Positions 18,000-45,840 of a DNA stretch of 64,000 bases are shown piece by piece; the stretch's first letter is position 1, and every line of letters begins with the position of its first letter. The position numbers were made by a program, and so were the translations under genes. This DNA comes from a bacterium (GTDB taxonomy: Bacteria > Patescibacteriota > Microgenomatia > Daviesbacterales > UBA10151): NCBI GenBank assembly GCA_021786105.1, contig JAJYNW010000015.1, positions 12,685 through 76,684 of the forward strand. Reading direction: 5' to 3'. Below the pieces are notes generated by a model that was not told the DNA's origin, ran no database searches, and saw only the letters and a program-made list of their open reading frames with translations.

Positions 18000-18042
18000 A
18001 GTAATTGTGAAAAGGAAGCTATTCCAGCAAATTACAGCCAGA

Positions 18043-19161
18043 ATGGAGGCGCCGGAAGCGATTGTTGTAACCGGCATGCGCAGAGTTGGGAAGACAACAC
18101 TAATTAAGCAGGTATATGATAGTCTAAATACTGCCAATAAGATTTTTCTTGATTTGGAAAACCCTGTTAACCAAAAGTACTTTGAAGAAGTAAATTACGA
18201 AGCAATCAAATACCGATTCCAAACCCTTGGTATAGATTTATCCCAAAAGGCTTATATCTTTTTGGATGAAATTCAATTTGTCAAAAATTTACCCTCGGTT
18301 GTTAAATATCTGATGGATCATTATCAAATCAAGTTTTTCTTAACCGGCTCCAGCTCTTTTTACTTAAAGAATTTATTTTCCGAATCTTTGGCAGGCAGAA
18401 AAATAATTTATGAGTTATTTCCTTTAGATTTTGAGGAATTTTTGCTTCTTAAGGGCAGTCATATTGTTATACCTGAAAAAAATGTCAGTGAATCTATTTA
18501 TCAGACAATTATTCCTTTATATAAAGAATATATAGAATTCGGGGGGTTTCCGGGGGTTGTTGTGAAATCATCTCCTAAGGAAAAGCAGGAGGCATTAATG
18601 GATATATTCAGCGCTTATTTCAATAAAGAAGTTTTAAGTATTGGCGGTTTTCGGAATAATCAGGCGGTGAGGGATTTAATGCTGCTCCTGATAAGCAGGA
18701 TCGGTAGTAAAGTTGATGTGCAAAAATTATCTGCCGAACTAGGAATATCAAGGATAACTGTCATGGAATATCTGGCATTTTTGGAAGGGACATATTTTAT
18801 ATCGTTGTTATCACCATATTCTACCAATAAGGATACAGAAATAAGAGCTGCTAAAAAGGTATACTTTTGCGATAGTGGTTTAGTCAATAGTATACAAAAT
18901 ACCCCCTTTGGTAACCTTTTTGAAAATACAATCTATAATCAATTGCGAACTCGGGGAGAAGTAAATTATTACCAGCGAAAGAGTGGAGTAGAAATAGATT
19001 TCATTCTTAATAAACAGGAAGCATGGGAAGTAAAGACAAAAGCTGACAGTCATGATTGGATTAAGCTGCAAAGATTGGTCAAAGAGCTTAAGTTAAAAGA
19101 GGGGAAAATAGTTTCTTTTGAATATTCTCAAGCTAATGTTATTTATGGATTTCAAATCTAA
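18043..19161 (+). CDS. AAA+ ATPase of the DUF4143 family
   Basis: Walker A VVTGMRRVGKTTL, Walker B IFLDEIQ; the track ORF starts at 17971, but the internal ATG at 18043 follows the promoter. Confidence 0.65.
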   Translation: MEAPEAIVVTGMRRVGKTTLIKQVYDSLNTANKIFLDLENPVNQKYFEEVNYEAIKYRFQTLGIDLSQKAYIFLDEIQFVKNLPSVVKYLMDHYQIKFFLTGSSSFYLKNLFSESLAGRKIIYELFPLDFEEFLLLKGSHIVIPEKNVSESIYQTIIPLYKEYIEFGGFPGVVVKSSPKEKQEALMDIFSAYFNKEVLSIGGFRNNQAVRDLMLLLISRIGSKVDVQKLSAELGISRITVMEYLAFLEGTYFISLLSPYSTNKDTEIRAAKKVYFCDSGLVNSIQNTPFGNLFENTIYNQLRTRGEVNYYQRKSGVEIDFILNKQEAWEVKTKADSHDWIKLQRLVKELKLKEGKIVSFEYSQANVIYGFQI

Positions 19162-19542: not shown

Positions 19543-22500
19543 ATGGCACAAATTGAAAGTTATAACCCTGAGCGAAGTCGAAGGGAAAGAATTATGGCAG
19601 AAAGTAGTGCAATTCCAGAAGGAGCCCGTGATGTCCCCAAAAACCAATTAGTAATAGTGGGCCCAGGTGGTGAATACCGGGGACAATATAGACCTCCAGA
19701 AACGCCAAAGCCTCCTGAAGACCGTTTACTTCCAAGAAGGGTGGAAGAAGAAATAGCAGAAAGAGGAGGTAGTGAGTTTGAAAGAGCCAGATTGCTTTAC
19801 GACCATTACATGGGATTACCTCTCCCTATTGAGCAAGGGCTAAGAGATGAACTTCAAAGACGCCAAGCGCAAAGAAGAGCAGAGCTTGAGCGATTAGAAC
19901 AGGAAGCCGAAAAACACCCGGCTCAACCAGTGAAATTAATTACCAGAGAAATGCTGAGATCTTATAAAAGAATTAAGGAAACCAGGATCCGCGAATTGCA
20001 GGGTGGAGGAAGAGAGGATGCCATAGAACGGGAAAGAAGTAGGGGAGAATTGCAGGAAAGAATATTTGAAGATTATACTGAACTTGCTTCAGAGAGGAGT
20101 ATTCTTGCCGGCTTAGGACGCTACTTATGGGATGGTTTTCATACGGCAGTTGTTAATAATGAAAAAGGTATAACAGGTTTAACTCTTAAAAATCCTTTTG
20201 CAGAACGATTTTTTGAAATGATTAAACGGATGAGGCAAAGGGACAGGATGAGTACGAAAGAAAGCAGATATTTTCAGGTTGAATCATGGTATGGTGGATC
20301 TACAATCGTGATGTTTACCTGGCCTGAAAGCGCCCGGGATATGATCATTACTACCATGGATTGGATGAAAGATCGTATAGCAGATATAGGTCAGCGCGAT
20401 CCGGGAACAGCAAGTAAAGAATTTGAGGAAATGAGGTCACTTGGCCCTAATCTTTTGAAAAATACCCGTATCCGCATTAACGATGAACCAGTTTTGGTGG
20501 CAGAGCATGGGAAGATTCAGGAAACAAACCCGGATTACTTAAGAGCAAGAGCCCTTAGCGAAGGTCCGCCCGATGTCTTTGCCACTGAGATAATTACAAA
20601 AAAGGGCAATACTGAATTTGGGCCACAAGCTAAAGAAAGATTTGCTGCCAAATTTATTGAGAATTTCAATGCCATGTTTTTAGAAAATAGATCTGCAGCT
20701 TATTTGATGCACAGATTAAGAACATACAAAGATGGTACTTATTGGACCGGTCATGATTGGCATGCCGATAAAGTGAAAGAAGGGGATATCAAAGATTACC
20801 GGGCAAAAATACAGGAAGAGCTGATGGGTGAAGCTGCTACTCTTGATTTCTTTACTGAAACTATTTTTGTCAATAACCAAGACCTTTTTCAGGATGTGAT
20901 TCAAGGAAAAGATATTGGGGAAACAGCGGAAAATGTAGAAGATGTGAGGTTAGCTTATAAAGGCTTTTTTGAACTCAGAGAAAGGAACGGTTTGCAGTAT
21001 AGTATTAATGATCCTCTAGAAAGATTACTGTTAGATCCCGGAGATGTAATAAGACAAAGAATTAAAGCTACAGGAGATGCTGAGGCTTTAAAAAGGCATG
21101 ATGTGCGTGTAGCAGTTTTCAGAAGAACAAAAGAATTATTAGACAGAAGAGAAGGCTTTGACTTTATTAGCATGGCAGAAATATATAAGTTGGAGAAGCG
21201 TATGAGACGGCCGCTTTCAGATGAAGAACTGGCCGATTTAGCAGAAGTACATAAAGATGTTATCCGTGCACAGTTGCAGCAAACTCTGCAATCTCAGGGA
21301 CAAGATCCTGATCAGAATAAAGATTGGATTGAACAAAGCATTATAGAAGTTAAAGAAAGCAGAAAACAGGAGGCTATTAGGAGTAGGATACGCGCTCGGG
21401 TAGAGGAGATTAGCCGGGGAAAAAGCTATTTTGCAGAAACTTGTGCAGAAACATTAATACGGTTTGATCAAGCTAAGAAGGCTGGTGATTTAGCAAAATG
21501 TGATCAAATAGCCTGGGGATGGGTTAAAGATTATAACAGCAAGCTTATTCGATCTCATTTACCAAAATGGTACCCGAGCGGTTGGGATAAAGTCAGACTA
21601 AAAATAGACAGAGCGGCTAAAGTGATTGACCGTTCTTTAACAGAGGAAGAGAGGGAAGCAATGTATGAAACAGCATATCTGCCCGAGGGAAATGATGAGG
21701 AGTCAATAGCAAGAAGACTTGACCTTATTGCAGGCCGCGGAGAAGAAGCGAGATTTGGTTTTGAGATGGCCAGAGTCTTTTCACCGTTCTTGATGGAGTC
21801 TTCTTTGTTAGGAGGCATGAGAATCAGAATGGTGATGAAAAAAGGACCACATGCTGGAGAATATATTGGCAGGCTGGATGATGATGAAACCAGCGTGTTG
21901 TGTGGTCTTATTAAAGGAAGGGTAAATCCTCAAACGCGTGAAGTTGAGATTGAGAAAGATGTCAATGGTGAAGCTATTATTATAGATCCTGAGAGAAAAA
22001 GTATCCGTATTTCGGACATACTTGAGGCTCGGTTGGCCAAAGCTATTGCCGACGAGGAACACGAAATAGAACCTTTCAGGTTAGCTAAACATCAGGCATT
22101 GACAGCCATGTACAGGGCTGAACTATCTGGCAATCAGGCAGAAATGGCTGCGGCACACCAAGCTTTGGATAAAGCAGCCAAAGATTTAAGAGAAAAACTA
22201 TGCGACTGTCAATTTATAGTCACCCATGCTTTTAAAGCAAAAGGTTTAGTTAATGGTAGATGGCCAACATGGCCACAGGCATCAGCTTTGGATAATTCTG
22301 GAATTAAGTTGTTTGGAGAAATCTTAGCAGAATACGGAGTAGAGGTAGCTCCAGGCCTGCCTTTTGCAGACTATAAGAGCGAAATTTATGAGTATTTGGA
22401 AAGAGAAAGAAGAGGCCAGTTTGCAGAGATGGATCGGGCAAATCAAGAGTTTATGGAAGATAAATATCCTATTTATGAACGTGACGAGTGGACCGGAGAG

Positions 22501-23847
22501 ATTATTATGGATCCGGTGTTTGAGAATGGCGAGCCCAAGAAGGATCAACAAGGGAAAACGGTTATGGCACCAAGACCAGCTATATCCATATTTACCATGT
22601 CTGATCCCTGGGGCGAGCCAGGGCCGATGTCTGACCGGCCGCGGGTGGTAAATAAAGGAGACTGGGCAGAGAATACCATGGTCACTGAAGCAGAGTATAA
22701 TATCTCTACTAGCGGCGGAGTGAAATTCCCTGAATTTATCCGCTATGCCAGCATTCGCTTTTTACCTTTAGGAATATCGGGGCTGGGTTCCCCAGGCCTT
22801 TGGGATTTGAATAATTTCATTAAAGGAAGGAATGAAGTTGAATTCCATAAGCAAAAATTGTTTGATCCAACAGACATGCCCAAAAATGCCAGAGCGCAGG
22901 CTGCAGCCTATAAAGCCCGGATAGCTTTAACAGGCGGCAGTTTAGGTGAAGGCCAATTCACCCCAGGATTTTTAAATGAACCATTTAATGGTGCATTTAC
23001 TATTGCCGATTGGCTCCGTCAAATAGCCACCAATCAAGCTGGTTTTGATGCTTACAAGATGGAGAAAACCCAACTGTATGTAAAGAAAATGGAAGCTATG
23101 AGGAATGGAGAGACTCTCAAGGAGGGGGAACTAGAGGAATTAAGGCAACTAACTTACGAAGATTATTTTGTTCTCATTAAACATAAGACTATTGCAGATG
23201 AGTTTTATCAAACCACCTATAAGACTTTTGGCAATTTCGTTACTTGGCTTAAAGCTGAAAAGGAAGTTGAGCAAAACCGGATTGGTAATGCTCCAAGGAA
23301 CTATGCTTATGATAATACAAAACGCTGGTATGCCTTTAGAAAACTGATGCGCGAATCCATGCACAAAGGCGAGCGGGGTTTTATTCAAAGGTTAGGTTAT
23401 TCTCCTGAGATAGCTAGCGAGCTTTCCTTAAGAATGTTAGAAACCGGTATGCAGGATGCAGATTACTTGATTTTAAGGGATTATGAGAGGGAAAGATTGG
23501 CTCAGGAAGGATCATTAATACTTTCTAAAGTCTTAATTGATGCAGAAAAACAGAAAGGACTTTCATTATTAGATGAGACAACATGGGAAGATCAACGTGC
23601 CGAGGTAAAAAAAGCTTTGGAAACAGTCAGAAGAAGAGGCTTGCTGGAGTTTATGAGAGAAGAAGGATTTTCATGGTATTCAAAAATTGAAGGGGTAGAA
23701 AAAGGGCGATATAAACGCGAAGATAAATTTTATTTAGGGGAAAGAGTACCTGAAGCAGTTAGGAAAAACGGTAATATGATTACAAATTATGAACGCCGGG
23801 TAATGAGATCTGCAGAGTATCAATATCAACCACCTGTCACACCGTAG
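19543..23847 (+). CDS. Giant orphan protein (1434 aa), highly charged, no TM or signal peptide
   Basis: Uninterrupted 4.3-kb ORF with strong promoter and RBS; E/R/K/D-rich; no Walker or other catalytic motifs recognised. Confidence 0.6.
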   Translation: MAQIESYNPERSRRERIMAESSAIPEGARDVPKNQLVIVGPGGEYRGQYRPPETPKPPEDRLLPRRVEEEIAERGGSEFERARLLYDHYMGLPLPIEQGLRDELQRRQAQRRAELERLEQEAEKHPAQPVKLITREMLRSYKRIKETRIRELQGGGREDAIERERSRGELQERIFEDYTELASERSILAGLGRYLWDGFHTAVVNNEKGITGLTLKNPFAERFFEMIKRMRQRDRMSTKESRYFQVESWYGGSTIVMFTWPESARDMIITTMDWMKDRIADIGQRDPGTASKEFEEMRSLGPNLLKNTRIRINDEPVLVAEHGKIQETNPDYLRARALSEGPPDVFATEIITKKGNTEFGPQAKERFAAKFIENFNAMFLENRSAAYLMHRLRTYKDGTYWTGHDWHADKVKEGDIKDYRAKIQEELMGEAATLDFFTETIFVNNQDLFQDVIQGKDIGETAENVEDVRLAYKGFFELRERNGLQYSINDPLERLLLDPGDVIRQRIKATGDAEALKRHDVRVAVFRRTKELLDRREGFDFISMAEIYKLEKRMRRPLSDEELADLAEVHKDVIRAQLQQTLQSQGQDPDQNKDWIEQSIIEVKESRKQEAIRSRIRARVEEISRGKSYFAETCAETLIRFDQAKKAGDLAKCDQIAWGWVKDYNSKLIRSHLPKWYPSGWDKVRLKIDRAAKVIDRSLTEEEREAMYETAYLPEGNDEESIARRLDLIAGRGEEARFGFEMARVFSPFLMESSLLGGMRIRMVMKKGPHAGEYIGRLDDDETSVLCGLIKGRVNPQTREVEIEKDVNGEAIIIDPERKSIRISDILEARLAKAIADEEHEIEPFRLAKHQALTAMYRAELSGNQAEMAAAHQALDKAAKDLREKLCDCQFIVTHAFKAKGLVNGRWPTWPQASALDNSGIKLFGEILAEYGVEVAPGLPFADYKSEIYEYLERERRGQFAEMDRANQEFMEDKYPIYERDEWTGEIIMDPVFENGEPKKDQQGKTVMAPRPAISIFTMSDPWGEPGPMSDRPRVVNKGDWAENTMVTEAEYNISTSGGVKFPEFIRYASIRFLPLGISGLGSPGLWDLNNFIKGRNEVEFHKQKLFDPTDMPKNARAQAAAYKARIALTGGSLGEGQFTPGFLNEPFNGAFTIADWLRQIATNQAGFDAYKMEKTQLYVKKMEAMRNGETLKEGELEELRQLTYEDYFVLIKHKTIADEFYQTTYKTFGNFVTWLKAEKEVEQNRIGNAPRNYAYDNTKRWYAFRKLMRESMHKGERGFIQRLGYSPEIASELSLRMLETGMQDADYLILRDYERERLAQEGSLILSKVLIDAEKQKGLSLLDETTWEDQRAEVKKALETVRRRGLLEFMREEGFSWYSKIEGVEKGRYKREDKFYLGERVPEAVRKNGNMITNYERRVMRSAEYQYQPPVTP

Positions 23848-23876: not shown

Positions 23877-25706
23877 TTAAGTAATGGTATTCTGTGTTTT
23901 TGACGTTTGTTGTTGAGGCTTTCTTTTAAATGGCCAGGGAGGAGTCCAATCCATCTCTCTTGCTTTTGTTAAACCAGGTTTTCCAGTATATGGTACCCAT
24001 TTCATTGAATCCTTATCTCTTATAAATTGTGTTTCTCCAAAGACACTTGTTTTAGCCCCTTGGCCCCAGTTAAGACCGCCCATATAGGTTCTTTGGGCAT
24101 AACCCTGGCCGCGGCCAAAGCCGCCCATTACTTCCTGTCCGATTGCCGCTCCTGCCTGGCCGCCCCGCCCAATAGTTTTGGTTACGATATCAGGGATTGT
24201 GGGAAGTGCCATTAGAGCTCCAAACGCCAATAAAATTCTTACGAAACTAAGATCCATCCCTCCCAGCAGTGGGAAGGTGGTGGTGTCCACGATACCTCTG
24301 CCGCTGCCGATCTGGGCATAGGCCGGGGAGATTAAGTTCCCGCCGCTTGGTTGACTAGAGCCGGCAACTTTAAACAGGCATTTGTTTAGGTCTTTGTCAG
24401 GGCAGTGCGGGGCTAAATCAGGCCCCATGATGAATGCCACAAAATAGAGTACTGCCACGACGGCCGGGAATATCAAAATATTGCCAATCATATTTAAAAC
24501 CCAGCCTGTTGCCATCCCCTGTCTGCCCGGTAAAGAGGCAATAAGAAATTGAAATGGGGCGCTGATAGTTAAGAAAATAATTGTCAGCCAGGCCATAATT
24601 AAACGTAGCAGCAGTTTGATCATTTGATAGATTAAAGCTAAAGCAGCGGCAAAGCTTAAAAAGTATCCTAGGAAAAACGGTAAGGCCACATTAGCCGTAA
24701 CTCCTCCAAGTAGACTTAACACCGGACCTGCAATTAAGCCCCAGGGTGGCGGGATGCCACCAGCAATGGGCATTAAGAATTGGGCAGAAAGCCAAAAAAC
24801 CACGATTCTTAGTGGATTTATAGCATCTCCCAGATTGCTGATGATACTATTGGCCACACTTTCTGCTCTGTCTCGGGTCACTACTCCTGTTAGTGGGGAC
24901 ATGAGGCTGAGGATATTTTGATTAGAGAGTTTCTGTGTCAAATTTAATTGTTCTTTAAACTCGCCATTATCTAACTTTCCCTGAGCAGCTACAAAATAAT
25001 AACCTACGACATTCGTTCCGACAAATGCCATGTCAGAGATCAGGCCGGCTAAAAAGTAGGAAAAAGTAATCATAATCAGGCCGATGACTAAACCCGGTAA
25101 AGCAGTTTGGGCAGTAATGACTGTTTGCGGATTGATTTTATTCCTAAACATAATCATCAGTCCGATGACTAAAAAGACTATAATCATGATGACATAAGCA
25201 ATATTTCTGGATACTTGCCAAAGGGTTAAAATGGGGTTTAACACTGCTGCTCCTGATCCAACCACCTGGGCATTGGCTGTTTTGACAATGCCTAAACCTT
25301 GTCCCACTGAAGCTAAATAATCAGCGGTTCTGACTGGCGGATTTTGGTATAACATTCCGATTAAGTTGGTAGTAGTTCCTAATACACCTCCGGAAGTATT
25401 AACCTGGGATAATACCGGGATGCTTTGAATCATACCCTGAGCATTTTTAGTCACTTGATAAGTTAAGCATGGTTGGCCGATGACCGATTGCCCGATGGCC
25501 AAACAGGAAAAAGAATGGAATAAGTTATTGACTAACAGGTCAGTATAGAGAGGGGAAGTAGGGCTAATAGTAGTTGGCAGTTGGGTAACAGTTGGGGTAA
25601 CAGGGGTGGCAGGCATAGCAGCAGGAGTAGCGGTCGCAGCATAAACAGGAGCAGTAAGGAATAGATAACCAGCAGTTAGCAGTAGGGCAAGGATCCGGGC
25701 AAACAT
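23877..25706 (-). CDS. VirB6/TrbL-like polytopic membrane protein
   Basis: Signal peptide, Pro/Thr-rich N-terminus, at least 7 TM helices, Gly-rich C-terminus; heads the pilin-like array. Confidence 0.45.
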   Translation of the reverse strand: MFARILALLLTAGYLFLTAPVYAATATPAAMPATPVTPTVTQLPTTISPTSPLYTDLLVNNLFHSFSCLAIGQSVIGQPCLTYQVTKNAQGMIQSIPVLSQVNTSGGVLGTTTNLIGMLYQNPPVRTADYLASVGQGLGIVKTANAQVVGSGAAVLNPILTLWQVSRNIAYVIMIIVFLVIGLMIMFRNKINPQTVITAQTALPGLVIGLIMITFSYFLAGLISDMAFVGTNVVGYYFVAAQGKLDNGEFKEQLNLTQKLSNQNILSLMSPLTGVVTRDRAESVANSIISNLGDAINPLRIVVFWLSAQFLMPIAGGIPPPWGLIAGPVLSLLGGVTANVALPFFLGYFLSFAAALALIYQMIKLLLRLIMAWLTIIFLTISAPFQFLIASLPGRQGMATGWVLNMIGNILIFPAVVAVLYFVAFIMGPDLAPHCPDKDLNKCLFKVAGSSQPSGGNLISPAYAQIGSGRGIVDTTTFPLLGGMDLSFVRILLAFGALMALPTIPDIVTKTIGRGGQAGAAIGQEVMGGFGRGQGYAQRTYMGGLNWGQGAKTSVFGETQFIRDKDSMKWVPYTGKPGLTKAREMDWTPPWPFKRKPQQQTSKTQNTIT

Positions 25707-25753
25707 AAAGATATACTAACAGTAAAACAAACCACCATACTTTGCAACTCTTT

Positions 25754-26194
25754 TCAGGGCTTAAATGGACCGCAGAACCAGTTGGTGGAGTCGCCGCATA
25801 AAGCTTTCATGTTAAAAACTGTGACAGGTTGATTTGTGAAGCCGGCAATCAGCTGTAAAATAATCCACGCTACAGCCATAAAAAGTACTCCTAAAATGGC
25901 CCATGACAGAGTGTAGTGGGCAGCCTGGAGGGCTTTAGGTTCCCCGCCGGAGGTCAGGTATTTAAATCCGGCAACAAGCAGTACCATGAGCATGGCAATA
26001 AACCCCAGGCCAACTACTACAGACAGGACATTGCCAACTGTTCCTTCGATTTCATTTAATCCGGCCGGGCAGGGACCATATTTGGCAATTGAGGCAGCAT
26101 CAGAAGGGCAGGGCGAAGGAACAGGATTTGCTGCGTAGGCCGGAGAAACAAAAAAAGCCAAGATTAAAGTAAAGAGCAGCAATATCTTCATCAA
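25754..26194 (-). CDS. Pilin-like paralog 1 (signal peptide, conserved TM-SGGEPK-TM hairpin)
   Basis: SP MMKILLLFTLILAFFVSPAYA; FKYLTSGGEPKALQAAHYTLSWAILGVLF. Confidence 0.5.
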   Translation of the reverse strand: MMKILLLFTLILAFFVSPAYAANPVPSPCPSDAASIAKYGPCPAGLNEIEGTVGNVLSVVVGLGFIAMLMVLLVAGFKYLTSGGEPKALQAAHYTLSWAILGVLFMAVAWIILQLIAGFTNQPVTVFNMKALCGDSTNWFCGPFKP

Positions 26195-26257
26195 TTAATC
26201 ATTATTCACTAATGTTAAATCATTTGCAATGGCTGGAAGATCAAATGAAATTTGGTA

Positions 26258-26626
26258 TTAGCTGGGAGCTGGGATTGGCAGAGTGCCAATGTTGGGGAAG
26301 CCTAAGATTTGGGCTGCCAGTTGAGCCAAGGCAAAGGCGACAGCCAGAATGGCGATACCAACTAAAGCATTGATAATTCTGTTTCTGGCTTTGGCCACCG
26401 CTTCTTTGTCTCCACCGGACACAATCCATTCAAATGCCCCCAAAATCAGCATCACCAAAACTACTAATACTGCTATGGAAAAAGCGATCGTGATGATATT
26501 GGTAATAAAGTTGCCGATAGTTTTATAACCATAGGGAGGCGGGGAGATGGTTATATCTGTAGCCAAGGCCGGAGTAGCGGTTAACAATGAAAATGCTGCA
26601 GAACCAATAAATGCTAATTTTTTCAT
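26258..26626 (-). CDS. Pilin-like paralog 2
   Basis: Signal peptide; LGAFEWIVSGGDKEAVAKARNRIINALVGIAIL. Confidence 0.5.
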   Translation of the reverse strand: MKKLAFIGSAAFSLLTATPALATDITISPPPYGYKTIGNFITNIITIAFSIAVLVVLVMLILGAFEWIVSGGDKEAVAKARNRIINALVGIAILAVAFALAQLAAQILGFPNIGTLPIPAPS

Positions 26627-26662
26627 CTCTGGTTTAACTATAGCTATATCGCAAACGACTTG

Positions 26663-27388
26663 TCAATACCCCCAGTTCACGGGAGGAGAACAATCTGAGG
26701 GATTAGTTGGTGGATGAGTTAAGGCAAAAGCTTGCTGACCCGGGCAGGAGATGCGATAGAGGTCGCCCCATCGCTCGATTGTGCATCCTTTGCAAACGCT
26801 CTCGTCAAAAAACTCAAATCCGGTAAATGTGCCCAAAACTGAGATAATGGCAAAAGCCGCGGCAAAGAGTAGGATGCCTATAATAGCATTTAAAATTCTC
26901 CTTTGAGCGGCAGCTAATTGTTCTTTATCCCCTCCGGAAGTAAGCCATTGAAAGGCTCCCCAGAGGATCATAAATAGCAAGACAATGGCGGCTACCATAT
27001 AAATTAAGTTGACGCCGTTTGATAAAAATTGGCTAATAGCTCCGGCGCCGGTCGGGTCTTTTTTTAACATGCCTTGCAGCGGGTTGGGAGGCAGAATTTT
27101 GCCAAACAGGTTTTGGACAGTATCTATTTGGCATGTAGAAGCTTGGGTAGTTTTACCAGGTGGGATATCCGGGGTACCGTCTTTATTATAATGCAGTTGG
27201 CAGCTGTATTTTTTTCCCTGATAATCATCGCAGGTATCAACACCGGGGTGGCAAATTTCGTCGTGACCACAAGGAACACCATGGCAGGCGCTGGTATCTG
27301 CTAAAACGGCTGTGTGACTAAACAGTAAAACAGCGGTTATAACGGTAAGAAATGCTAATAAGCTGGTTAGGAAAAATCTCTTCGACAT
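26663..27388 (-). CDS. Pilin-like paralog 3 with Cys-rich ectodomain
   Basis: Signal peptide; 12 Cys in the N-terminal 90 aa; LWGAFQWLTSGGDKEQLAAAQRRILNAIIGILLF; Cys-rich C-tail. Confidence 0.5.
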   Translation of the reverse strand: MSKRFFLTSLLAFLTVITAVLLFSHTAVLADTSACHGVPCGHDEICHPGVDTCDDYQGKKYSCQLHYNKDGTPDIPPGKTTQASTCQIDTVQNLFGKILPPNPLQGMLKKDPTGAGAISQFLSNGVNLIYMVAAIVLLFMILWGAFQWLTSGGDKEQLAAAQRRILNAIIGILLFAAAFAIISVLGTFTGFEFFDESVCKGCTIERWGDLYRISCPGQQAFALTHPPTNPSDCSPPVNWGY

Positions 27389-27527
27389 GGATCCCTAAAA
27401 ATATCTTACCATAAACTCATACAAATCTCTTATCTTTATCACATTTCTTCCATTCATTTTTCTGTTAGCATAAAGCATAGCCTATAACCTTGACAAAAAT
27501 ACTATAGAGTATTAAAATGGCGCTCAA

Positions 27528-28433
27528 ATGGGTAAGTCGGGAGAGTTAGAACAAGACAATCAAGCTAAAAATGCAGCAATTGAAGAAGCTGCCAAAAAGG
27601 GTATGGAGGCATCCAAAGGTCAGGGTGCTGATTCCTTAGTAGAAAATTCAGATGCCAGTCTCCCCGGAAGTCTTAGTCCGAAAACCAGATTAGCGCTTGC
27701 TTGTGGAGTTGGTATATTGGCGCTTTTAGGTATAACCTCTTGTATTTTTGGTGAACCGCCAGTTGCAAAGGCCGGAAATCCTGATACGCCTGTTGCAGGC
27801 CCTCAGCCAACTTATACACCTTTGCCAACTTATACTCCGTATCCTACCGCTGAGCCGACTTATACACCCTATCCGACTTATACTCCTCAGCCAACCTTTA
27901 CTCCTCTGGCTACCGCTATACCTACATCAACTCCAGCGCCCACCCCGACTCTTCAGCCAGGCATGACTTTGTTAAACCCTACCCAGCCCGGTTTGTTTAT
28001 CCTGCAAGCTCCTGAGCCGCGAGTGGTGCATGCGGATACAATTAATCCGGCAATTTGTTACCCACAAGTGGTTGATAAACCAGTTCCGGTTAAAGTAGAA
28101 GTGCCGCGCCAGCTTAGGGAAGACGAGAGGGTTGTGACCGATGCAACATTGAACGATTACACTAGGAGAAAGGCTGAGGAAATTACCGCCCCGCTCAAAA
28201 GCGAGCTTGATGCAACTAAGGCCAAGTTGACAACTGCAGAAAAAGCCCTGAGCGATTGTAATACTAACTTAACAGATACCAAGAAACAATTAGATAAGGT
28301 TCAAGGGTGGCATTATGATATTTGGTCTGGTTTGATAACTGCTTTGCCGGTTTTAGGGCTGGCGGCAGGGTTGGCTTATAGATTTAGACAAAGAATTATT
28401 GTTCGTCTCTATCCTGGTATTGTTTTCCCTTAA
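27528..28433 (+). CDS. Membrane protein with PTYTP tandem repeats and coiled coil
   Basis: TM at about 60, (P)TYTP(Y/L)PT repeats x8, coiled coil, C-terminal TM; promoter TTGACA-17-TATTAA upstream. Confidence 0.45.
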   Translation: MGKSGELEQDNQAKNAAIEEAAKKGMEASKGQGADSLVENSDASLPGSLSPKTRLALACGVGILALLGITSCIFGEPPVAKAGNPDTPVAGPQPTYTPLPTYTPYPTAEPTYTPYPTYTPQPTFTPLATAIPTSTPAPTPTLQPGMTLLNPTQPGLFILQAPEPRVVHADTINPAICYPQVVDKPVPVKVEVPRQLREDERVVTDATLNDYTRRKAEEITAPLKSELDATKAKLTTAEKALSDCNTNLTDTKKQLDKVQGWHYDIWSGLITALPVLGLAAGLAYRFRQRIIVRLYPGIVFP

Positions 28434-28457
28434 TTTAGCAGTTGTTTTGACTCAGCT

Positions 28458-28790
28458 CTAACTTTGGAATAGCTGGAGATTGGTAATTCCGAATAAACTG
28501 GACAGTAAAAATTGCAGAATGATAAAGGCAAACATTAAAATAATAAAGCCAATGATGGCGTGAGTAATCATTTGTCTGGCTCCGGCAATTTCTTCTTTAT
28601 TCCCGCCAGATTTTAACCAATTAAAAGCTCCCCAGAGGAAATAAATTACCACTGCAGCCGCGGCAACGGAAAATATGGTAGGAACTAACTTGCTGATGAT
28701 GTCTCCAAAAGAAGAAAATGATGGGCCAAAGCCAAAACAGTCTTTAATTGATACGCCGGAGGGGTAAGGGGGAGTAGGGCAGGGGTTCAA
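28458..28790 (-). CDS. Pilin-like paralog 4
   Basis: LWGAFNWLKSGGNKEEIAGARQMITHAIIGFIIL. Confidence 0.5.
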   Translation of the reverse strand: MNPCPTPPYPSGVSIKDCFGFGPSFSSFGDIISKLVPTIFSVAAAAVVIYFLWGAFNWLKSGGNKEEIAGARQMITHAIIGFIILMFAFIILQFLLSSLFGITNLQLFQS

Positions 28791-29083
28791 AATGGTACCC
28801 CTCCTTTCGGTTGTAAAACTTCTGCCACAAATTTGGCCACAAAGAAAGCCAATAATACTATGATCAGACCAAGGATGGCCCAGGTGATCCTGGCCCGGGC
28901 TTTGGCCAAATCTTCTTTTTTCCCCTGGGCCATAATGTAAGAAATTGCGCCCCAGATTAAATAGGTAAAGGAGAGGAAAACAGCGGCAAAAAAAGCAATG
29001 TTGATGAATACGGAAAGCAGGTCACCTAAAGTTTTCTGAGGTGCAGGATTAGCTTTAAAAATATCGTTTAAGCCAGGTATCAT
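28787..29083 (-). CDS. Pilin-like paralog 5
   Basis: IWGAISYIMAQGKKEDLAKARARITWAILGLIIV; ATGA overlap with paralog 4. Confidence 0.5.
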   Translation of the reverse strand: MIPGLNDIFKANPAPQKTLGDLLSVFINIAFFAAVFLSFTYLIWGAISYIMAQGKKEDLAKARARITWAILGLIIVLLAFFVAKFVAEVLQPKGGVPF

Positions 29084-29086
29084 AAT

Positions 29087-29121
29087 AGTGACTAGTCGCC
29101 AGAGTCTAGAGTCAAGTGGAT
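29087..29121. repeat. 35-bp direct repeat, left copy (agtgactagtcgccagagtctagagtcaagtggat)
   Basis: Identical to 29473-29507; flanks the four-helix-bundle gene. Confidence 0.8.
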
Positions 29122-29468
29122 TTCAATAAACCACTTAAGATTCTAGCTGTTTCTGTATGAATATCTAATATTCTCTCATAATCTTGAGAGTTTATAAACT
29201 TTCTTTCATAAGCAAAATCAATAAAAAATTCTAGTTCTGTTAAAGATGCGACTGCCATTTGATAAAAATGTTTTCTATCTTTTAAACTACTTCTGCTGTA
29301 TCCCTCAGCTATATTGGCGCAAACAGATAAAGCAGCTCGACGCATTTGGGAAATTAGTCCGAAAATTTCGTCTTTAGGGAAGTTGGTTGTTTCATCGTAA
29401 ATTAAATGAGTTAGCAGATTACTTTTTTGCCATGCAATTAATTTTCTGTAACCTTTATTATTTCGCAT
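29112..29468 (-). CDS. Four-helix-bundle protein (TIGR02436 / bAvd-like; 23S rRNA IVS protein family)
   Basis: 118 aa; WQKSNLLTHLIYDETTNFPKDEIFGLISQMRRAALSVCANIAEGYSR typical of this family. Confidence 0.65.
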   Translation of the reverse strand: MRNNKGYRKLIAWQKSNLLTHLIYDETTNFPKDEIFGLISQMRRAALSVCANIAEGYSRSSLKDRKHFYQMAVASLTELEFFIDFAYERKFINSQDYERILDIHTETARILSGLLKST

Positions 29469-29472
29469 AGTT

Positions 29473-29507
29473 AGTGACTAGTCGCCAGAGTCTAGAGTCA
29501 AGTGGAT
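29473..29507. repeat. 35-bp direct repeat, right copy
   Basis: Perfect copy of 29087-29121; followed by further gactctaga palindromes to 29560. Confidence 0.8.
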
Positions 29508-29524
29508 GGCTGTTTTTCTAGACT

Positions 29525-30703
29525 CTAGATTCTAGACTCTTGACTCTGATGAAACCCAGGTATATTTAATATACTCACTCCAATAATCTGTAAAAGCAAA
29601 ATACTAAAAATTACAAATAATAATCCAATAATGGCACTGGTTACTCTGCTGCGGCCGGCGCTTAAGGTTTCCGGATTACCGGCTGAGGTGAGCATCTGAA
29701 ATGCCCCCAGCAGCATCATTAAAAATGATAAACCTCCGCCGATGCCAATGGTAAATGTTAGAAAGTCTTTAACCAACTCAGGAGGATTGGTATGGATGCA
29801 GCCAATGGCAGTAGGGATACCAGGGTTAGGGTTAAGTTTGGTTGGGTCGTTTGGATCCTGAGGGTCATTGCATCCGGGAACTAGATTACCCATGGCAAGG
29901 GAGCAATCTTCTGGTTTGACGCATTGTTTTGTTATATCTGGTAGAACGGGGCATTGCCCGCCCTCGCCGCTTCCCAGCACCCCGACGGTAAAGCATACCG
30001 GAGCGCACTCAATACGATTATTTTTCCCTATAACCACGGTATAAATACCCCCATTAAATTTTCCTAAGTTCTTGCTAAGGGTGGAGGGATCTGCGGGATC
30101 AAAATTGTTATTGGAAAATTTAATTTCATTATTGATATAGATATCATAACTACCCTTATTAATATTCTGTGCCGATAAAATGACATCTGTGGTTGGATCA
30201 ATCGGTTTGGTCTCTATAGTGCTGGTACAGTTTGATTGCGCAGGAGCATTTTTAAATTCAAAAGTATCCTGGCAAACGATATTTCGAGGTGTTGGAGGTT
30301 TACCCTTTTCCATGGCAGTAATGATATAGGTGCCTAAATTCCATTTGTCATGTCCCCAGCTAGCAGGCCAGCCATTAGGGGGATGTTGTATTATGAGCGG
30401 AGCGGGGGTGTCTGCGCCAAAAGTAATATCGTTTACGTTATAAATATTACCGGCAGGGTCTTTAATTTGGAACCAATAAAGAGTTGGGGTTAAATCTTTT
30501 GAAGTATTGGTAACAGTAATTTTTAAATCGCCTATATTTTGATTGAGTGATCCTTTGGGAGGATCGTAGTCGAAGCTACATTCGGTCGCTGCGAATGTAT
30601 TTACAGGTAGGAAAAATGAGGTAAAAGAAAAAACTAATATTACCGTAAATAATTGCAGGAGGATTTTGGACATTAACCTCAGCTTAGCACGAAATTCATT
30701 CAA
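29525..30703 (-). CDS. Pilin-like paralog 6 with large (about 300 aa) Cys-containing ectodomain
   Basis: Signal peptide; beta-rich ectodomain; LLGAFQMLTSAGNPETLSAGRSRVTSAIIGLLFV at the C-terminus. Confidence 0.5.
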   Translation of the reverse strand: MNEFRAKLRLMSKILLQLFTVILVFSFTSFFLPVNTFAATECSFDYDPPKGSLNQNIGDLKITVTNTSKDLTPTLYWFQIKDPAGNIYNVNDITFGADTPAPLIIQHPPNGWPASWGHDKWNLGTYIITAMEKGKPPTPRNIVCQDTFEFKNAPAQSNCTSTIETKPIDPTTDVILSAQNINKGSYDIYINNEIKFSNNNFDPADPSTLSKNLGKFNGGIYTVVIGKNNRIECAPVCFTVGVLGSGEGGQCPVLPDITKQCVKPEDCSLAMGNLVPGCNDPQDPNDPTKLNPNPGIPTAIGCIHTNPPELVKDFLTFTIGIGGGLSFLMMLLGAFQMLTSAGNPETLSAGRSRVTSAIIGLLFVIFSILLLQIIGVSILNIPGFHQSQESRI

Positions 30704-30747: not shown

Positions 30748-32478
30748 ATGCGCCGAATCATTTTGCTCCTAGCCCTGGCCTTTTTTCTGTTTACCGTTTT
30801 AGGTTATTTTACTTCTGTCCGCGCTGATGAGATAGAGGATTTACAAAAACAGATTGACCAATTAAATCATGCCCGGGAACTGTCGGTTAATGCTACCAAG
30901 CCGTTAGAAGGGCAGTTGGATTCTTTAAAGCGGCAGCTGGCCCAAATCCAGGCCAGTTTAGATAATTTATCTGCCAATATCAAAGCCAAGCAAAAGGATT
31001 TGGATGTCCGGGAAGACAAATTGGCTTTGCAGCAGGCACTTCTTGAAGAAAGAGTTAAAGCTTACTATATTCGTTCCTATATGACTGATCCGCTGCTGGT
31101 TATTTTTTCCTCAATTCAGGCGGGGGATTTATTCAGGGAGCTGTCTTATCGTCAGTCAGTGACTCGGGAGGATAGATCAATTATTTCTTCCATCACGGCG
31201 GAAGTGGTGGATTTGTTAACCCAAAAGGAAAAACTGGAAAAAGATAAAGTTAAACTGGCTGCTTTGCAGGGAGAAGTGGATAAAAATGCCGACTTTTTAG
31301 GCGGGGAGATTAAAAAGGCCAAGGCTTATCAGGCCGATTTAACCGGTAAAATTGCCCAATTATCAGCCAAACAGCAGGAATTATTGGCACAAAAGCTGGG
31401 CAGTTTAAATTTACCTACCTCAGCCTACGCCATGCACGGCGGTTGCACTGATGATCGGAATACTGATCCGGGTTTCAGCCCGCGTTTTGCCATGTTTACT
31501 TACGGGGTGCCGAATCGGGTGGGTTTAAATCAATTTGGAGCCAAAGGTCGGGCGGAGGCTGGCCAAAATGCTCAGACCATCCTGCAGGCTTACTATAATG
31601 CTGATTACACCACCGGTTATAATTCCGGAATCAATATTCATGTCACCGGCAGCAATGAGTATGGTCAGTCTTTTGATGACAACTGGAATATTGAAGATTA
31701 CGTAAAACATTTATATGAAATGCCGGCCGGTTGGCCCATGGAAGCTTTAAAAGCTCAAGCCATTGCCGCCCGGTCTTATGCTTTGGCTTATACCAATAAC
31801 GGCGCCGGTCCGATTTGTCCCAGCCAGCAGTGTCAGGTGGTGAAAAAAGAAATTAATGACGGTAATTGGCAGGCGGCGGTGGATGCTACCCGGGGGATTG
31901 TTTTAACTTCCGGCGGCCAACCGATTAAGGCCTGGTTCTCTTCTACCCATGGCGGCTATGTTTTTTCCTCCGGCGATATTGGCTGGAGTTCTACGCCCTT
32001 TACCAAACGGGGGCAGGACGCCTCCGGCGGCATTAACAGTTTTGCTGATTTGCAAAACAATGCTTATGATAAAAGCTCGCCGGTTTTCTACTGCGATTGG
32101 GGTTCCCGGGCTCAGTATAATAAGACTGCCTGGTTAAAGCCGGAGGAGTTGGCCGATATTGTTAACGTATTGATGCTGGCCAAGAAAGATTCCGGTACTC
32201 AAGTTCACTTATCCCAGGTTGATAAGCCTAATCCCGATGGTCAGGAAACCTGGGATGCTGATCGGGTTAAAAGGGAGTTGGGATCACAGGCTTTCAATAC
32301 TATTTCCAGCGTGTCAGTGTCTGCTGATTTCGGATCCGGTCAAACCACTACCGTGACAGTCTCCGGAGACGGCAAGACTCAATCCTTCAGCGGCGGTGAG
32401 TTCAAAAACTACTTTAATTTACGGGCGCCTTCTAATATTAATATTGTTGGTCCGTTATTTAATGTGGAACAAAGGTGA
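30748..32478 (+). CDS. SpoIID/LytB-domain peptidoglycan hydrolase with N-terminal coiled coil
   Basis: Signal/TM, long coiled coil, PAGWPMEALKAQAIAARSYALAYT SpoIID motif. Confidence 0.65.
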   Translation: MRRIILLLALAFFLFTVLGYFTSVRADEIEDLQKQIDQLNHARELSVNATKPLEGQLDSLKRQLAQIQASLDNLSANIKAKQKDLDVREDKLALQQALLEERVKAYYIRSYMTDPLLVIFSSIQAGDLFRELSYRQSVTREDRSIISSITAEVVDLLTQKEKLEKDKVKLAALQGEVDKNADFLGGEIKKAKAYQADLTGKIAQLSAKQQELLAQKLGSLNLPTSAYAMHGGCTDDRNTDPGFSPRFAMFTYGVPNRVGLNQFGAKGRAEAGQNAQTILQAYYNADYTTGYNSGINIHVTGSNEYGQSFDDNWNIEDYVKHLYEMPAGWPMEALKAQAIAARSYALAYTNNGAGPICPSQQCQVVKKEINDGNWQAAVDATRGIVLTSGGQPIKAWFSSTHGGYVFSSGDIGWSSTPFTKRGQDASGGINSFADLQNNAYDKSSPVFYCDWGSRAQYNKTAWLKPEELADIVNVLMLAKKDSGTQVHLSQVDKPNPDGQETWDADRVKRELGSQAFNTISSVSVSADFGSGQTTTVTVSGDGKTQSFSGGEFKNYFNLRAPSNINIVGPLFNVEQR

Positions 32479-33318: not shown

Positions 33319-35171
33319 TGAAACTTAAGATTGCTCAAGTCGTTGGTCTGAATACCGATCAAAAAGCTGCTCAAGTCACCTCGGCCGCCAGGGATGATAA
33401 TACCTTTCTGGCGGTTTTAGAGATGTCTTGTGATGATGCTTTTACTAAAGGCCGGCAGGCTTTATCAGAGTTGGAAGACTTCTATTTTGAGTTTGAGGGG
33501 AATGCCACCGAAAGATTAAATGCTACCTTTACCGAAGCAGAAAACAAATTATCCAAAGGCGGTGAATTTGATTTAGTGTTGGCCACGGTTTCCGGCAAGG
33601 TGTTGTACCTAATTGGTAAGGGTCAGGTGGAAGTTTATTTAAAACGGGGAGAAAAGTTGTCACCGCTTTTGTCGGTAGGTGCGTCCTCACAACTTATTTC
33701 CGGTTTTTTGCAAGACGATGATAAATTCTTACTTTGCACCGGTAGCTTGGCTGCCTTTCTAGGCTCAGAATTGGAAAAATCCTTAAGCTTGCCGATTGAA
33801 AATTTTGAGGAAGAGGTAGGCAGTAAAATTGGCACCTCTGATTTAGATAGCCAAGGGCTGGCTGCTTTAGCGGTGGAAGCTTTGGAGGGGAATCTGGAAA
33901 TTGCCCCGATTGTTTCTCATGAGGATTTGGGCCGGGTATCTCAGTCAGAAGAGCGGGCTATTGAAAATACTGTTAAAAAACCGCTAGTTCTTATTCCTGT
34001 GATTGCGGATAGGGTTTTGAGGTTATCCAGACGGTTGGGGTCCTATTTCCCAAAGTCTGGTCGGGGACGGCTGATTGTGGCAGTTGTTTTAATTCTCATT
34101 ATTATTGCCGGTGTGGGCTATAAATATAAAACAAGCCGTGACCACAAAATTCAGATCCAATTTAACCAGTTATTGCAGGAAGCTAAGGATGATTTTAACG
34201 GAGCTAAGGGAATTGCCAGTTTGAGCCCGGCTGATGCCAAGAGCAAACTGGATCAGGCTAAAGACCTGATTAGTAAAGCTTTAGTTTTAAAGCCGAATGA
34301 TCAAGAGGCCCAAAATTTCAAAAAACAGCTGGAGAGCGAATCGTCATCAATTTTACAGCAAGCTGAAGTATCGGAATTCCCGGTGTTTTTGGATTTGGAT
34401 TTAATCAAAAAAGACTTTCGGGCCACTCAAATGAGTTTATCTGGCGGTAAATTGTTACTTTTAGACCCGGGAATTAAAACTTTGGTGGTGATTGATCTTT
34501 CGAAAAAGAGTAATCAGATTTTGGCCGGATCAGAACAGTTGGGGGAGGCTGGCTTTGCCTCGTTAAACGGCGGACTGGCCTTTATTTATTCTAAAGATAA
34601 GGGGATTTTAAAGATTGATACTAACAATCAAAAAACTACCAAGGTGGCCAAAAAGGATGATGAGTGGGGACAAATTGCTGATGTTTATGGCTTTGCCGGT
34701 AATGTTTATGCTTTAGACTCAGGTAAAAAAGAGACGCCGCAAAGCGGACAAATCTGGAAGTATCTGCCAACCTCTGATGGTTATTCCGACAAAAGGATGT
34801 ATCTGAGCAAAGATGCTAAGGTGGATTTTAGTGGTGCTTTAAGGATGCAGATTGAATCTTCGATTTATGTGCTCAAAAGCGGGGGAGAGATTTTACGGTT
34901 TACCAAGGGCGATAAAGACAATTTTTCCCTGAGCGGGTTGGACAAAGGGGTTAAGGATCCAAAGTCTTTCTTTGTTTCTTCTGATACTGATAATCTATAT
35001 TTGTTGGATTCCGGTAATTCCCGTCTGCTGATTTTAACTAAAACCGGCAGTTATAAAGGACAGATGGTCGGCAGTAAGTTTGCTACCTCTTCGGATTTGG
35101 TGGTGGATGAGGCCGGGAAAAAGGTGTATTTGCTGGATGGAAGTAAGATTTATACCGCAGACCTCAAATAA
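33303..35171 (+). CDS. Hypothetical bitopic protein with C-terminal beta-propeller-like repeats
   Basis: TM at about 250; repeated YLLDSGN / YLLDGSKIY blades. Confidence 0.4.
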   Translation: MGNAVMKLKIAQVVGLNTDQKAAQVTSAARDDNTFLAVLEMSCDDAFTKGRQALSELEDFYFEFEGNATERLNATFTEAENKLSKGGEFDLVLATVSGKVLYLIGKGQVEVYLKRGEKLSPLLSVGASSQLISGFLQDDDKFLLCTGSLAAFLGSELEKSLSLPIENFEEEVGSKIGTSDLDSQGLAALAVEALEGNLEIAPIVSHEDLGRVSQSEERAIENTVKKPLVLIPVIADRVLRLSRRLGSYFPKSGRGRLIVAVVLILIIIAGVGYKYKTSRDHKIQIQFNQLLQEAKDDFNGAKGIASLSPADAKSKLDQAKDLISKALVLKPNDQEAQNFKKQLESESSSILQQAEVSEFPVFLDLDLIKKDFRATQMSLSGGKLLLLDPGIKTLVVIDLSKKSNQILAGSEQLGEAGFASLNGGLAFIYSKDKGILKIDTNNQKTTKVAKKDDEWGQIADVYGFAGNVYALDSGKKETPQSGQIWKYLPTSDGYSDKRMYLSKDAKVDFSGALRMQIESSIYVLKSGGEILRFTKGDKDNFSLSGLDKGVKDPKSFFVSSDTDNLYLLDSGNSRLLILTKTGSYKGQMVGSKFATSSDLVVDEAGKKVYLLDGSKIYTADLK

Positions 35172-35225
35172 GAGTCTAGTCGCTAGAGTCTAGAATCTAG
35201 TACAATCTACCTTGACTCTAGACTC

Positions 35226-35681
35226 TTGATTCTAGCCACTATGAAAATAGTTAATAAAAAAGCTCTTCATAATTACCATATTTTGGAACACTTGGAAGCC
35301 GGGATTGTCTTATCCGGGGCGGAAGTTAAATCCATTAGGACCGGCCGGATTGATTTAGGTGAAGCTTATGTACGGATTTTAAATGGGGAGGTATATTTGG
35401 TAAATGCCAATATTCCCCGTTATAACCAGGCGGCAGATAAAGAATATGATGCTCAGAAATCCCGGAAATTATTGCTTCATAAAGACCAAATTAATTCATT
35501 AATCGGCAAAACTTCCGGCAAAGGGGCAACTTTAGTGCCGGTTTCCATCTATGAAAAGCATAATAGGTTTAAGGTAGAGGTGGGGTTGGCTAAGAGTAAA
35601 AAAGAATTTGATAAGCGAAAGATAATCAAGGAACGTGATCATGCTCGCAGGGTGGAGCAGGAGCTCCGCGGAAAAGAATGA
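35226..35681 (+). CDS. smpB: SsrA-binding protein SmpB
   Basis: KALHNYHILEHLEAGIVLSGAEVKSIRTGRIDL; the true start may be the second Met at 35241. Confidence 0.85.
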   Translation: MILATMKIVNKKALHNYHILEHLEAGIVLSGAEVKSIRTGRIDLGEAYVRILNGEVYLVNANIPRYNQAADKEYDAQKSRKLLLHKDQINSLIGKTSGKGATLVPVSIYEKHNRFKVEVGLAKSKKEFDKRKIIKERDHARRVEQELRGKE

Positions 35682-45788: not shown

Positions 45789-45840
45789 AATGTCTTATAG
45801 TCGTATCAATATTCATAAGATTTTTAGCTTATTGCAAGCC

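Follow-up and report, generated by a model that had tools for sequence, protein, structure and literature searches.

Six pilin-like genes in conserved order beside a candidate VirB6 analogue at a type IV secretion locus of Candidatus Daviesbacteria

The stretch of DNA analysed here, 64,000 nt of contig JAJYNW010000015.1 (GenBank assembly GCA_021786105.1, positions 12,685 to 76,684 of the forward strand; hereafter, the window), carries an array of six minus-strand genes for pilin-like membrane proteins. These lie directly upstream of a gene for a 609-residue polytopic membrane protein and are numbered as slots -1 to -6 by their distance from it, slot -6 being the first (Table 1). An earlier, sequence-only reading had proposed that the six proteins share a conserved C-terminal hairpin of the TrbC/VirB2 type, that their ectodomains are hypervariable, and that together they constitute a polymorphic surface system in a small-genome, episymbiotic bacterium. 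As to the organism, homologues of the 609-residue protein belong nearly all to Candidatus (Ca.) Daviesbacteria and other Microgenomates; sequence comparison therefore places the source in Ca. Daviesbacteria, within the Patescibacteria or candidate phyla radiation (CPR), in agreement with the supposed small-genome, episymbiont type. Additionally, dnaA, dnaN and yidC are found at 4-9 kb of the window (dnaA and dnaN at 6-9 kb), and the cumulative GC-skew minimum falls in the same region. The window is thus a piece of the Ca. Daviesbacteria chromosome near dnaA, and its encoded type IV secretion system (T4SS) is chromosomal, origin-proximal and of the monoderm type.

Table 1. Genes and other features of the window, with positions counted from its first nucleotide
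Feature	Position	Strand	Remarks
Slot -6 extended pilin	29525-30703	-	signal peptide, ~270-residue ectodomain, Cys-containing stalk, C-terminal hairpin; PF18895 25.4 bits
Slot -5 minimal pilin, 98 residues	28787-29083	-	no signal peptide; two hydrophobic segments only; PF18895 30.4 bits
Slot -4 minimal pilin, 110 residues	28458-28790	-	no signal peptide; 2 Cys in N-terminal tail; PF18895 35.8 bits
Slot -3 pilin, 241 residues	26663-27388	-	signal peptide, 88-residue N-terminal ectodomain (6 Cys), hairpin, 47-residue C-terminal tail (4 Cys); PF18895 36.0 bits
Slot -2 pilin, 122 residues	26258-26626	-	signal peptide, 15-residue mature N-terminus; PF18895 36.7 bits
Slot -1 pilin, 146 residues	25754-26194	-	signal peptide, 28-residue N-terminal tail (2 Cys), 22-residue C-terminal tail (2 Cys); PF18895 31.8 bits
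609-residue polytopic membrane protein, candidate divergent VirB6 analogue	23877-25706	-	directly downstream of slot -1
Four-helix-bundle gene (23S rRNA IVS protein family, Avd-like)	29112-29468	-	PF05635 at 1e-31; between slots -6 and -5
301-residue open reading frame splitting the array	27528-28433	+	two hydrophobic segments, Pro/Thr-rich stretch; no Pfam match
PrgI (VirB3-like), C-terminal extension	15134-16183	-	PF12666 at 2.3e-9; syntenic in 35 loci
TraC/TrsD-like protein, resembles VirB4 N-terminal part	14309-15124	-	weak PF11130 match; PF26593 TraC-like on public gene call; present in 33 loci
VirB4-family ATPase	12549-14312	-	TraG P-loop at 3e-25, AAA_10, CagE_TrbE_VirB; 72-89% identity across Daviesbacteria loci
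Cell-wall hydrolase, 806 residues, SLT and C39-like peptidase domains (VirB1/PrgK-like)	10125-12545	-	PF01464 and PF13529, both above cut-off
SpoIID/LytB-domain protein, N-terminal coiled coil	30748-32478	+	TIGR02669 at 5e-35, PF08486; same place in 32 loci
1434-residue open reading frame, no Pfam family	19543-23847	+	60-66% identity in L003 and L005, 34% in L016, weak or absent elsewhere
DUF4143 AAA_14 ATPase	17971-19161	+	
312-residue open reading frame, no assigned function	16685-17623	+	
Large serine recombinase	44056-45816		in 44017-57300 island
Type I restriction-modification hsdR, hsdM, hsdS	49296-54619		in 44017-57300 island
SMODS-like gene, then Cap15-type receptor gene (CBASS-like; cyclic oligonucleotide-based antiphage signalling system)	54628-56063		in 44017-57300 island
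LOOT RNA	48908-49018		in 44017-57300 island

The pilin-like array and its shared hairpin

All six open reading frames (ORFs) are present, on the minus strand, where they had been placed. The likely start of slot -6 is the ATG at 30673, which yields 382 residues (392 for the whole ORF) and coincides in length with the public gene call P0121; likewise, slot -1 probably starts at the ATG at 26191 and comprises 145 residues, as in its public gene call. Two non-pilin genes that went unmentioned in the earlier reading divide the array: the four-helix-bundle gene separates slots -6 and -5, and the 301-residue ORF, on the opposite strand, separates slots -4 and -3. A scan of the array for promoters and terminators found it to be no richer in either than shuffled sequence.

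The six proteins have in common a C-terminal module of ~77 residues, in which a hydrophobic helix is followed by a turn, a polar stretch and a second hydrophobic helix; two hydrophobic segments, as expected of a two-helix hairpin, are found in every module. The turn, (S/A)(G/Q)G, leads into (K/P)Ex(L/V)xxA(R/H/Q)x(R/T/M)(I/L/V)xxA(I/L)(I/L/V)G, and the loop motif proposed previously is essentially right when set against the six-module alignment. A hidden Markov model (HMM) of the six modules retrieves its own members at E 1e-29 to 1e-33, whereas no other of the 583 ORFs in the window, YidC, Wzy and the 609-residue polytopic protein among them, does better than E 0.73. Because the other polytopic proteins of the window score no better than this, the likeness between the modules exceeds what generic membrane composition would give, and the local profile singles out exactly six ORFs.

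Beyond the module, the proteins are less uniform than had been described. A signal peptide together with two hydrophobic segments, the layout attributed to the whole set, is present in four of the six, but the products of slots -4 and -5 have the hairpin helices only. The regions N-terminal to the module measure 15-269 residues after the signal peptide, and not ~30 to ~300, and the slot -3 protein contains 10 cysteines, and not 12. C-terminal tails of 9-47 residues are carried by three of the proteins, namely, those of slots -1, -2 and -3.

The TTG with which slot -4 starts overlaps the slot -5 stop codon, the two together reading TTGA (28787-28790), which suggests translational coupling. In many genomes, the slot -4 frame is open across most of the slot -5 gene, presumably as a result of codon composition; when read from stop to stop, the slot -4 ORF seems to be extended at its N-terminus (35% identical), but this extension is the conserved slot -5 gene translated out of frame, and was treated as an artefact.

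Family assignment and published arrays

The six proteins belong to the pilin-like family PF18895 (T4SS_pilin): five of them exceed its gathering cut-off of 26.6 bits (30.4-36.7 bits). The Pfam E-values are 1.5e-5 to 4.5e-9. Slot -6 falls 1.2 bits short of the cut-off, its public call P0121 has a precomputed PF18895 match, and eight of the nine slot -6 relatives scanned score 28.7-39.9 bits (23.2 bits for the ninth, L044). Some relatives are named 'pilin' by their sources. Moreover, five of the six match nearly the whole of the 80-residue NCBIfam profile NF045849 (Mbov_0395 family; E 4e-7 to 6e-4), albeit at 19-30 bits, below the 40-bit cut-off. At full length, the paralogues are 21-34% identical to the first sequence, and the modules of one genome share 34% identity on average.

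The array is a further example of a published kind, which the earlier reading did not take into account. From 383 Patescibacteria assemblies, Quinonero-Coronel et al. (2025; PMC12102498) report 441 arrays of VirB2-like pilin genes (PF04956 or PF18895); by their definition, an array has 2-11 such genes, either consecutive or separated by a single non-pilin gene. The arrays occur most often in Microgenomatia and Saccharimonadia, frequently lie close to dnaA and as a rule are without relaxases, and their members average 25% identity (at most 54%). The present set of six, interrupted by a non-pilin gene once between slots -6 and -5 and once between slots -4 and -3, falls within that definition, and the identities given above are similarly low. 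The present locus resembles those arrays in its ~25% identity level, in its Microgenomatia origin, in its proximity to virB4 and dnaA, and possibly in lacking a relaxase and coupling protein, neither of which was seen in the part of its ORFs that was scanned; it differs in having a first slot with a 270-residue ectodomain modelled as a β-sandwich.

A particularly close parallel is offered by Southlakia epibionticum, for which Wang et al. (2023; PMC10633639) describe six PF18895 genes, SEML1_0014-0019, adjoining the VirB6-like SEML1_0013. The combination of six pilins and a VirB6-like gene is as observed here, but there the two are divergent, whereas here the array lies upstream on the same strand. 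The S. epibionticum pilins match both PF18895 and PF04956, and by transposon sequencing (Tn-seq) all six of SEML1_0014-0019 were scored GD/ES/ES (growth-defective, later essential). Neither slot orthology, nor ectodomain replacement, nor a four-helix-bundle gene inside an array was found in the searched passages of these two papers.

Fixed slots and variable ectodomains in relatives

The relatives comprise 55 loci around homologues of the 609-residue protein, one per species. In ~40 Daviesbacteria species, six module genes run in one direction directly upstream of the 609-residue gene, the long one first and then the smaller ones, such that the array keeps its place beside the same gene and its members are not scattered, a scatter that would have told against the earlier reading. 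When a module is compared with other genomes, its best match falls in the same slot in 992-1643 comparisons, and in any other slot in at most 167; the mean identity is 61% for the same slot across genomes versus 34% between slots. HMMs of the individual slots, when applied to the held-out, distant loci L043-L045, gave the collinear order -6, -5, -4, -3, -2, -1, at a distance where the 609-residue protein itself is only 32-34% identical. Judged from these same-slot best matches and this collinear order, the six are old, positionally fixed paralogues and not a turning-over repertoire. The polymorphic surface system of the earlier reading is doubtful, since fixed, collinear and orthologous slots are not turnover cassettes.

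By contrast, its claim that the hairpin is conserved and the ectodomains are not is borne out. Across orthologues, 54-71% of residues are identical in the modules, as against 11-40% in the mature N-terminal regions, and the difference is strongest for slot -6 (71% versus 11%) and slot -3 (64% versus 15%). The comparison was made on amino-acid identity because the nearest species are already ~25-40% different in protein, so that synonymous sites would be saturated. In slot -6, the change between species looks like replacement and not gradual drift: the protein of the closest species, L003, has a module that is 77% identical, but an ectodomain that is 4% identical and of a different length, whereas a related ectodomain is kept in the more distant L014 and L023. 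Among the best 120 homologues of slot -6, approximately one-quarter cover the ectodomain (by the coverage tabulated for each match), and for the others the similarity is limited to the C-terminal 23-45% of the protein. A search for adhesin domains with Pfam in the slot -6 ectodomains of nine relatives and in one slot -3 protein returned the pilin module only.

Predicted structure and topology

The AlphaFold2 (AF2) model of the slot -6 protein, calculated from a 30-sequence alignment, has a mean predicted local distance difference test (pLDDT) score of 78.7. It consists, in order, of a signal helix, β-strand domains at residues 33-141 and 150-230, a low-confidence Cys linker, a small β hairpin and helices at residues 297-329 and 334-364, the two long helices being joined by a four-residue turn. 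The ectodomain is thereby modelled as two β-sandwich domains, for which the fold matches are generic Ig/macroglobulin/FN3-like sandwiches.

Across the six proteins, cysteines are confined to the N- and C-terminal tails, where they occur in even counts, and three to five Lys/Arg residues are located in the turn in four of the six (two in slot -6 and only one in slot -1). Taking hydrophobicity, charge, the paired tail cysteines and the AF2 model together, the predicted topology has both ends outside the membrane and the Lys/Arg turn inside.

The 609-residue neighbour

The 609-residue protein, which has nine hydrophobic segments, adjoins the pilin array in ~40 species, and its identity is 41-77% across Daviesbacteria, declining to 28-34% in the most distant Daviesbacteria and in other CPR lineages. 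It is homologous to a polytopic protein of a Saccharibacteria T4SS locus (E 2e-17), for which Pfam, in turn, gives no VirB6 match. The protein itself matches no Pfam or NCBIfam family, TrbL was not detected at E <=1 in 18 members of its family, and a sequence-profile search of the PDB retrieved designed repeat proteins only. When its structural model, which is poor (mean pLDDT 54.8), was compared with 350,542 PDB chains using Foldseek, the top five matches were all to TrwI/VirB6 of R388, with E-values of 0.075-0.41 and TM-scores of 0.21-0.39.

The description of this protein as VirB6-like holds insofar as it is polytopic, is encoded within a T4SS locus and has TrwI as its five best structural matches; it does not extend to a TrbL profile match or to a convincing fold E-value. 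In common with VirB6/TrbL proteins (PF04610; TrwI of R388, PDB codes: 7O3V and 8RT9), it is a polytopic protein encoded beside pilin genes, although it is approximately twice the length of TrwI. Thus, the evidence is suggestive of a candidate for a divergent VirB6, and not of an established member of that family. VirB6 is seldom found by profile searches in Microgenomatia (PMC12102498).

Fused hairpins in other genomes

Of 1.84 billion representative proteins, 70,189 are matched by the profile of the six modules at E <=0.001. Among the best 150 of these, ranked by summed score and consequently enriched in fusions, 142 have at least two modules in one polypeptide; the most modules per protein are the 8 of P0241, the 11 of P0256 and the 14-17 of P0261. 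P0241 is represented in two independent assemblies (L066:9925-12387 and L067:230-2692) in a CPR-like context; more PF18895 genes come after it, including a PF18895-PKD fusion, and a PKD-repeat protein also adjoins. P0261 (L068:10001-15328), on the other hand, is encoded beside ribosomal protein L39e and Cas4, suggesting that its source is an archaeon. The commonest combination in the two-module proteins is '-5 -4' (18 of 66), the same pair that overlaps as TTGA in the window.

The existence of fused multi-hairpin proteins is an argument for the side-by-side packing of different hairpins within a single assembly. A literature search aimed at such fusions in Patescibacteria gave only the 2025 array paper (PMC12102498), the pilin passages of which mention none.

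Inserted genes and repeats

The four-helix-bundle gene is flanked by perfect 36-nt direct repeats (29086-29121 and 29472-29507), the downstream copy of which supplies its last codons and its stop. A homologue occupies the same position between slots -6 and -5 in eight relatives, with a short fragment in L009, whereas five other relatives carry it immediately upstream of prgI, and L032 carries it in the gap from prgI to the TraC-like gene. The flanking repeats were seen in one of six relative loci checked, and are therefore no general signature. The gene is no pilin but probably a cassette that was inserted here, apparently a small one that has settled repeatedly in the spacers of T4SS operons. 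Its likeness to Avd raised the possibility of a diversity-generating retroelement (DGR) behind the variable ectodomains; this was rejected, as no repeat of at least 35 nt involves any pilin gene, there is no template/variable pair, and no reverse transcriptase domain was found in the part of the window ORFs that was scanned. The bAvd and DGR Avd models score below cut-off with the four-helix-bundle protein.

The 301-residue ORF is not conserved at its place: tblastn gave weak matches in 2 of 57 loci. Separately, a family of intergenic repeats, with the palindromic unit AGAGTCTAGACTCT and variants thereof, is found at 4336-4371, 16583-16659, 29086-29121, 29471-29547 and 35170-35249. One copy encodes the last eight residues of slot -6, HQSQESRI, a tail that is mostly absent in relatives.

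The T4SS neighbourhood and the remainder of the window

A monoderm-type T4SS set is situated at 10-16 kb of the window, i.e. 8-14 kb from the pilin array. The VirB4/VirB1-like cluster that had been recognized 8 kb away is confirmed, and resolves into genes for PrgI, a TraC/TrsD-like protein, VirB4 and a hydrolase with SLT and C39-like domains (Table 1); an account of TrsD is given in PMC12102498. In the ORFs scanned, which again are part of those in the window, neither a relaxase nor a coupling-protein domain was found.

Divergently transcribed from slot -6 is the gene for the SpoIID/LytB-domain protein, a constant neighbour of the array, and the neighbourhood that it shares across 32 loci also retains a bacterial PH-domain protein and a 622-residue protein without known family. 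The SpoIID/LytB-domain protein could remodel the wall for the T4SS, a functional link that we infer.

The stretch between the 609-residue gene and prgI is variable among relatives. A cobalamin riboswitch match at 16372-16595 (+), with 52 bits against a gathering score of 31.5, precedes the 312-residue ORF, and is unexpected in a genome of this type. Further along, the tRNA-Asn-adjacent stretch at 44017-57300 is probably an integrated defence island (Table 1). The tmRNA (35743-36163, +) has an unusually long tag of 33 residues, as predicted by ARAGORN, and an ORF with a LAGLIDADG domain (37456-38214, +) lies amid a cluster of tRNA genes.

Discussion

Membership of PF18895, synteny, slot orthology and the differential conservation of hairpin and ectodomain are shown by the sequences. 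Beyond this, we consider it moderately probable that the six proteins are the distinct subunits of one heteromeric, VirB2-like stalk or pilus of the CPR T4SS in which the ectodomain of slot -6 is exchangeable. Each protein would form a helical hairpin in the membrane, ends out and Lys/Arg turn in, with the hairpin serving for packing and the tails at both termini exposed. The six different subunits would co-assemble into an envelope-spanning structure, with the adjacent VirB6-like protein as its base and VirB4/VirB3 as its source of power. In slot -6, and less so in slot -3, a large ectodomain appears to be swapped between species; that of slot -6, carried on its Cys stalk, would plausibly contact the host cell. 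The fixed, collinear arrangement of the six genes in ~40 species favours a heteromeric assembly over interchangeable variants. Moreover, six non-interchangeable subunits are supported by S. epibionticum, the homologues of which each scored essential (PMC10633639).

The similarities to TrbC/VirB2 pilins (PF04956; VirB2 of the T-pilus and the F-pilin TraA) are architectural: a small hairpin with a short basic turn and ends predicted outside, a signal peptide in four of the six, and a T4SS locus with a VirB6-type protein. The differences are that there is no significant sequence or profile similarity, that the host is a monoderm, that there are six paralogues where diderm systems have one major pilin, and that some members bear large N-terminal domains or C-terminal tails; additionally, no VirB5 was identified. 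With the NF045849 pilin-like protein of Mycoplasma integrative and conjugative elements, the array has monoderm-type conjugation machinery in common, with the profile scores below cut-off as noted above. The Mycoplasma proteins are known as products of single genes on mobile elements, unlike those of the chromosomal six-gene array.

A bolder form of the heteromeric proposal, which we regard as doubtful, would have a filament of six obligate subunits whose order is mirrored by gene order. In it, the first slot would be a modular tip or adhesin, setting host specificity through its lineage-swapped ectodomain, and the poly-hairpin proteins (up to ~17 modules, one of them probably archaeal) would represent a covalently linked lattice. 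If this were true, the architecture of the pilus would be unlike that of any solved conjugative pilus.

A number of points weigh against a heteromeric stalk or pilus. Firstly, neither a pilus nor a stalk is known from any Daviesbacteria. Secondly, sequence similarity to solved VirB2/TraA pilins is absent or sub-threshold: against PF04956 (TrbC/VirB2; cut-off 27.9 bits), three of the proteins reach at best 18.7, 18.4 and 14.8 bits (E 0.002-0.034), with no match for the other three; hhalign gave a probability of 0.4% for 30 modules versus eight annotated MPF_T VirB2/TrbC proteins, a weak test because these are alphaproteobacterial only; and a search of PDB sequences with the 30-module profile found no pilin. 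On the sequence evidence, what is defensible is membership of PF18895 with a VirB2-like architecture; direct homology to VirB2 is not established. The earlier assignment to the TrbC/VirB2-type pilins is accordingly retained for hairpin architecture, and withdrawn as a direct one. Thirdly, the match of the modelled 609-residue protein to the VirB6 fold is not significant, and the adhesin role of the slot -6 ectodomain would rest on a generic modelled fold. Finally, the Tn-seq essentiality of upstream operon genes can be polar, there being 11-16 insertion sites per gene (PMC10633639), and the ranking by summed score counts against taking the fusions as evidence of frequency.

Some of the remaining difficulties would be accommodated if the hairpins did not form a pilus at all, but a membrane-embedded hetero-oligomer, as part of the translocon or as an anchor ring, that displays the tails and ectodomains at the surface. 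Gram-positive-type, or monoderm, T4SSs are normally without pili (PMC12102498), two of the six members here lack a signal peptide, there is no detectable similarity to solved pilins, and proteins with 8 to ~17 fused hairpins are hard to thread into a helical filament, so that these fusions may fit such a bundle better than they fit an extruded one. Conversely, the family is annotated as a T4SS pilin, the matches to TrbC/VirB2 and NF045849, although sub-threshold, are full-length, and the S. epibionticum members match both PF18895 and PF04956 (PMC10633639); furthermore, the placement of both termini outside is the topology of VirB2, and the modelled arrangement of a Cys stalk followed by β-sandwich domains would suit projection through the cell wall. 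On balance, we think a membrane-embedded oligomer rather unlikely.

Less likely still is that the six are redundant, interchangeable VirB2 variants, as in Bartonella and Anaplasma, deployed for surface variation or host range, an idea put forward in PMC12102498 to which the polymorphic surface system of the earlier reading corresponds. It draws on the low identity of the paralogues, at only 17-34%, and on ectodomains that differ both between paralogues and between species. However, diversifying turnover would not keep six fixed lineages in order, and the slots are collinear and orthologous in ~40 species, including very distant ones; the pilin genes contain no repeats of the gene-conversion type; hairpins are fused in single polypeptides elsewhere; and all six S. 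epibionticum homologues were individually scored essential (PMC10633639). That the resemblance is fortuitous, reflecting the generic transmembrane composition of unrelated small membrane proteins with a mostly hydrophobic module and three invariant columns among the six, is already refuted by the Pfam scores, by the local profile, beyond whose six members no window ORF approaches significance, and by slot orthology, given a turn motif that is polar and conserved and modules that are orthologous at 54-71% identity.

In the one species tested, epibiotic growth requires the Patescibacteria T4SS (PMC10633639), the role of which has been called completely unknown. The pilin array sets this T4SS apart from other monoderm T4SSs. 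The locus reveals no new system, but it gives testable constraints: six fixed slots imply six different jobs, as opposed to variation; for host recognition, the ectodomain of slot -6 is the candidate that suggests itself; the 609-residue family is a candidate for the VirB6 that profiles rarely find in Microgenomatia; and the fused multi-hairpin proteins provide a natural handle on the packing of the subunits.

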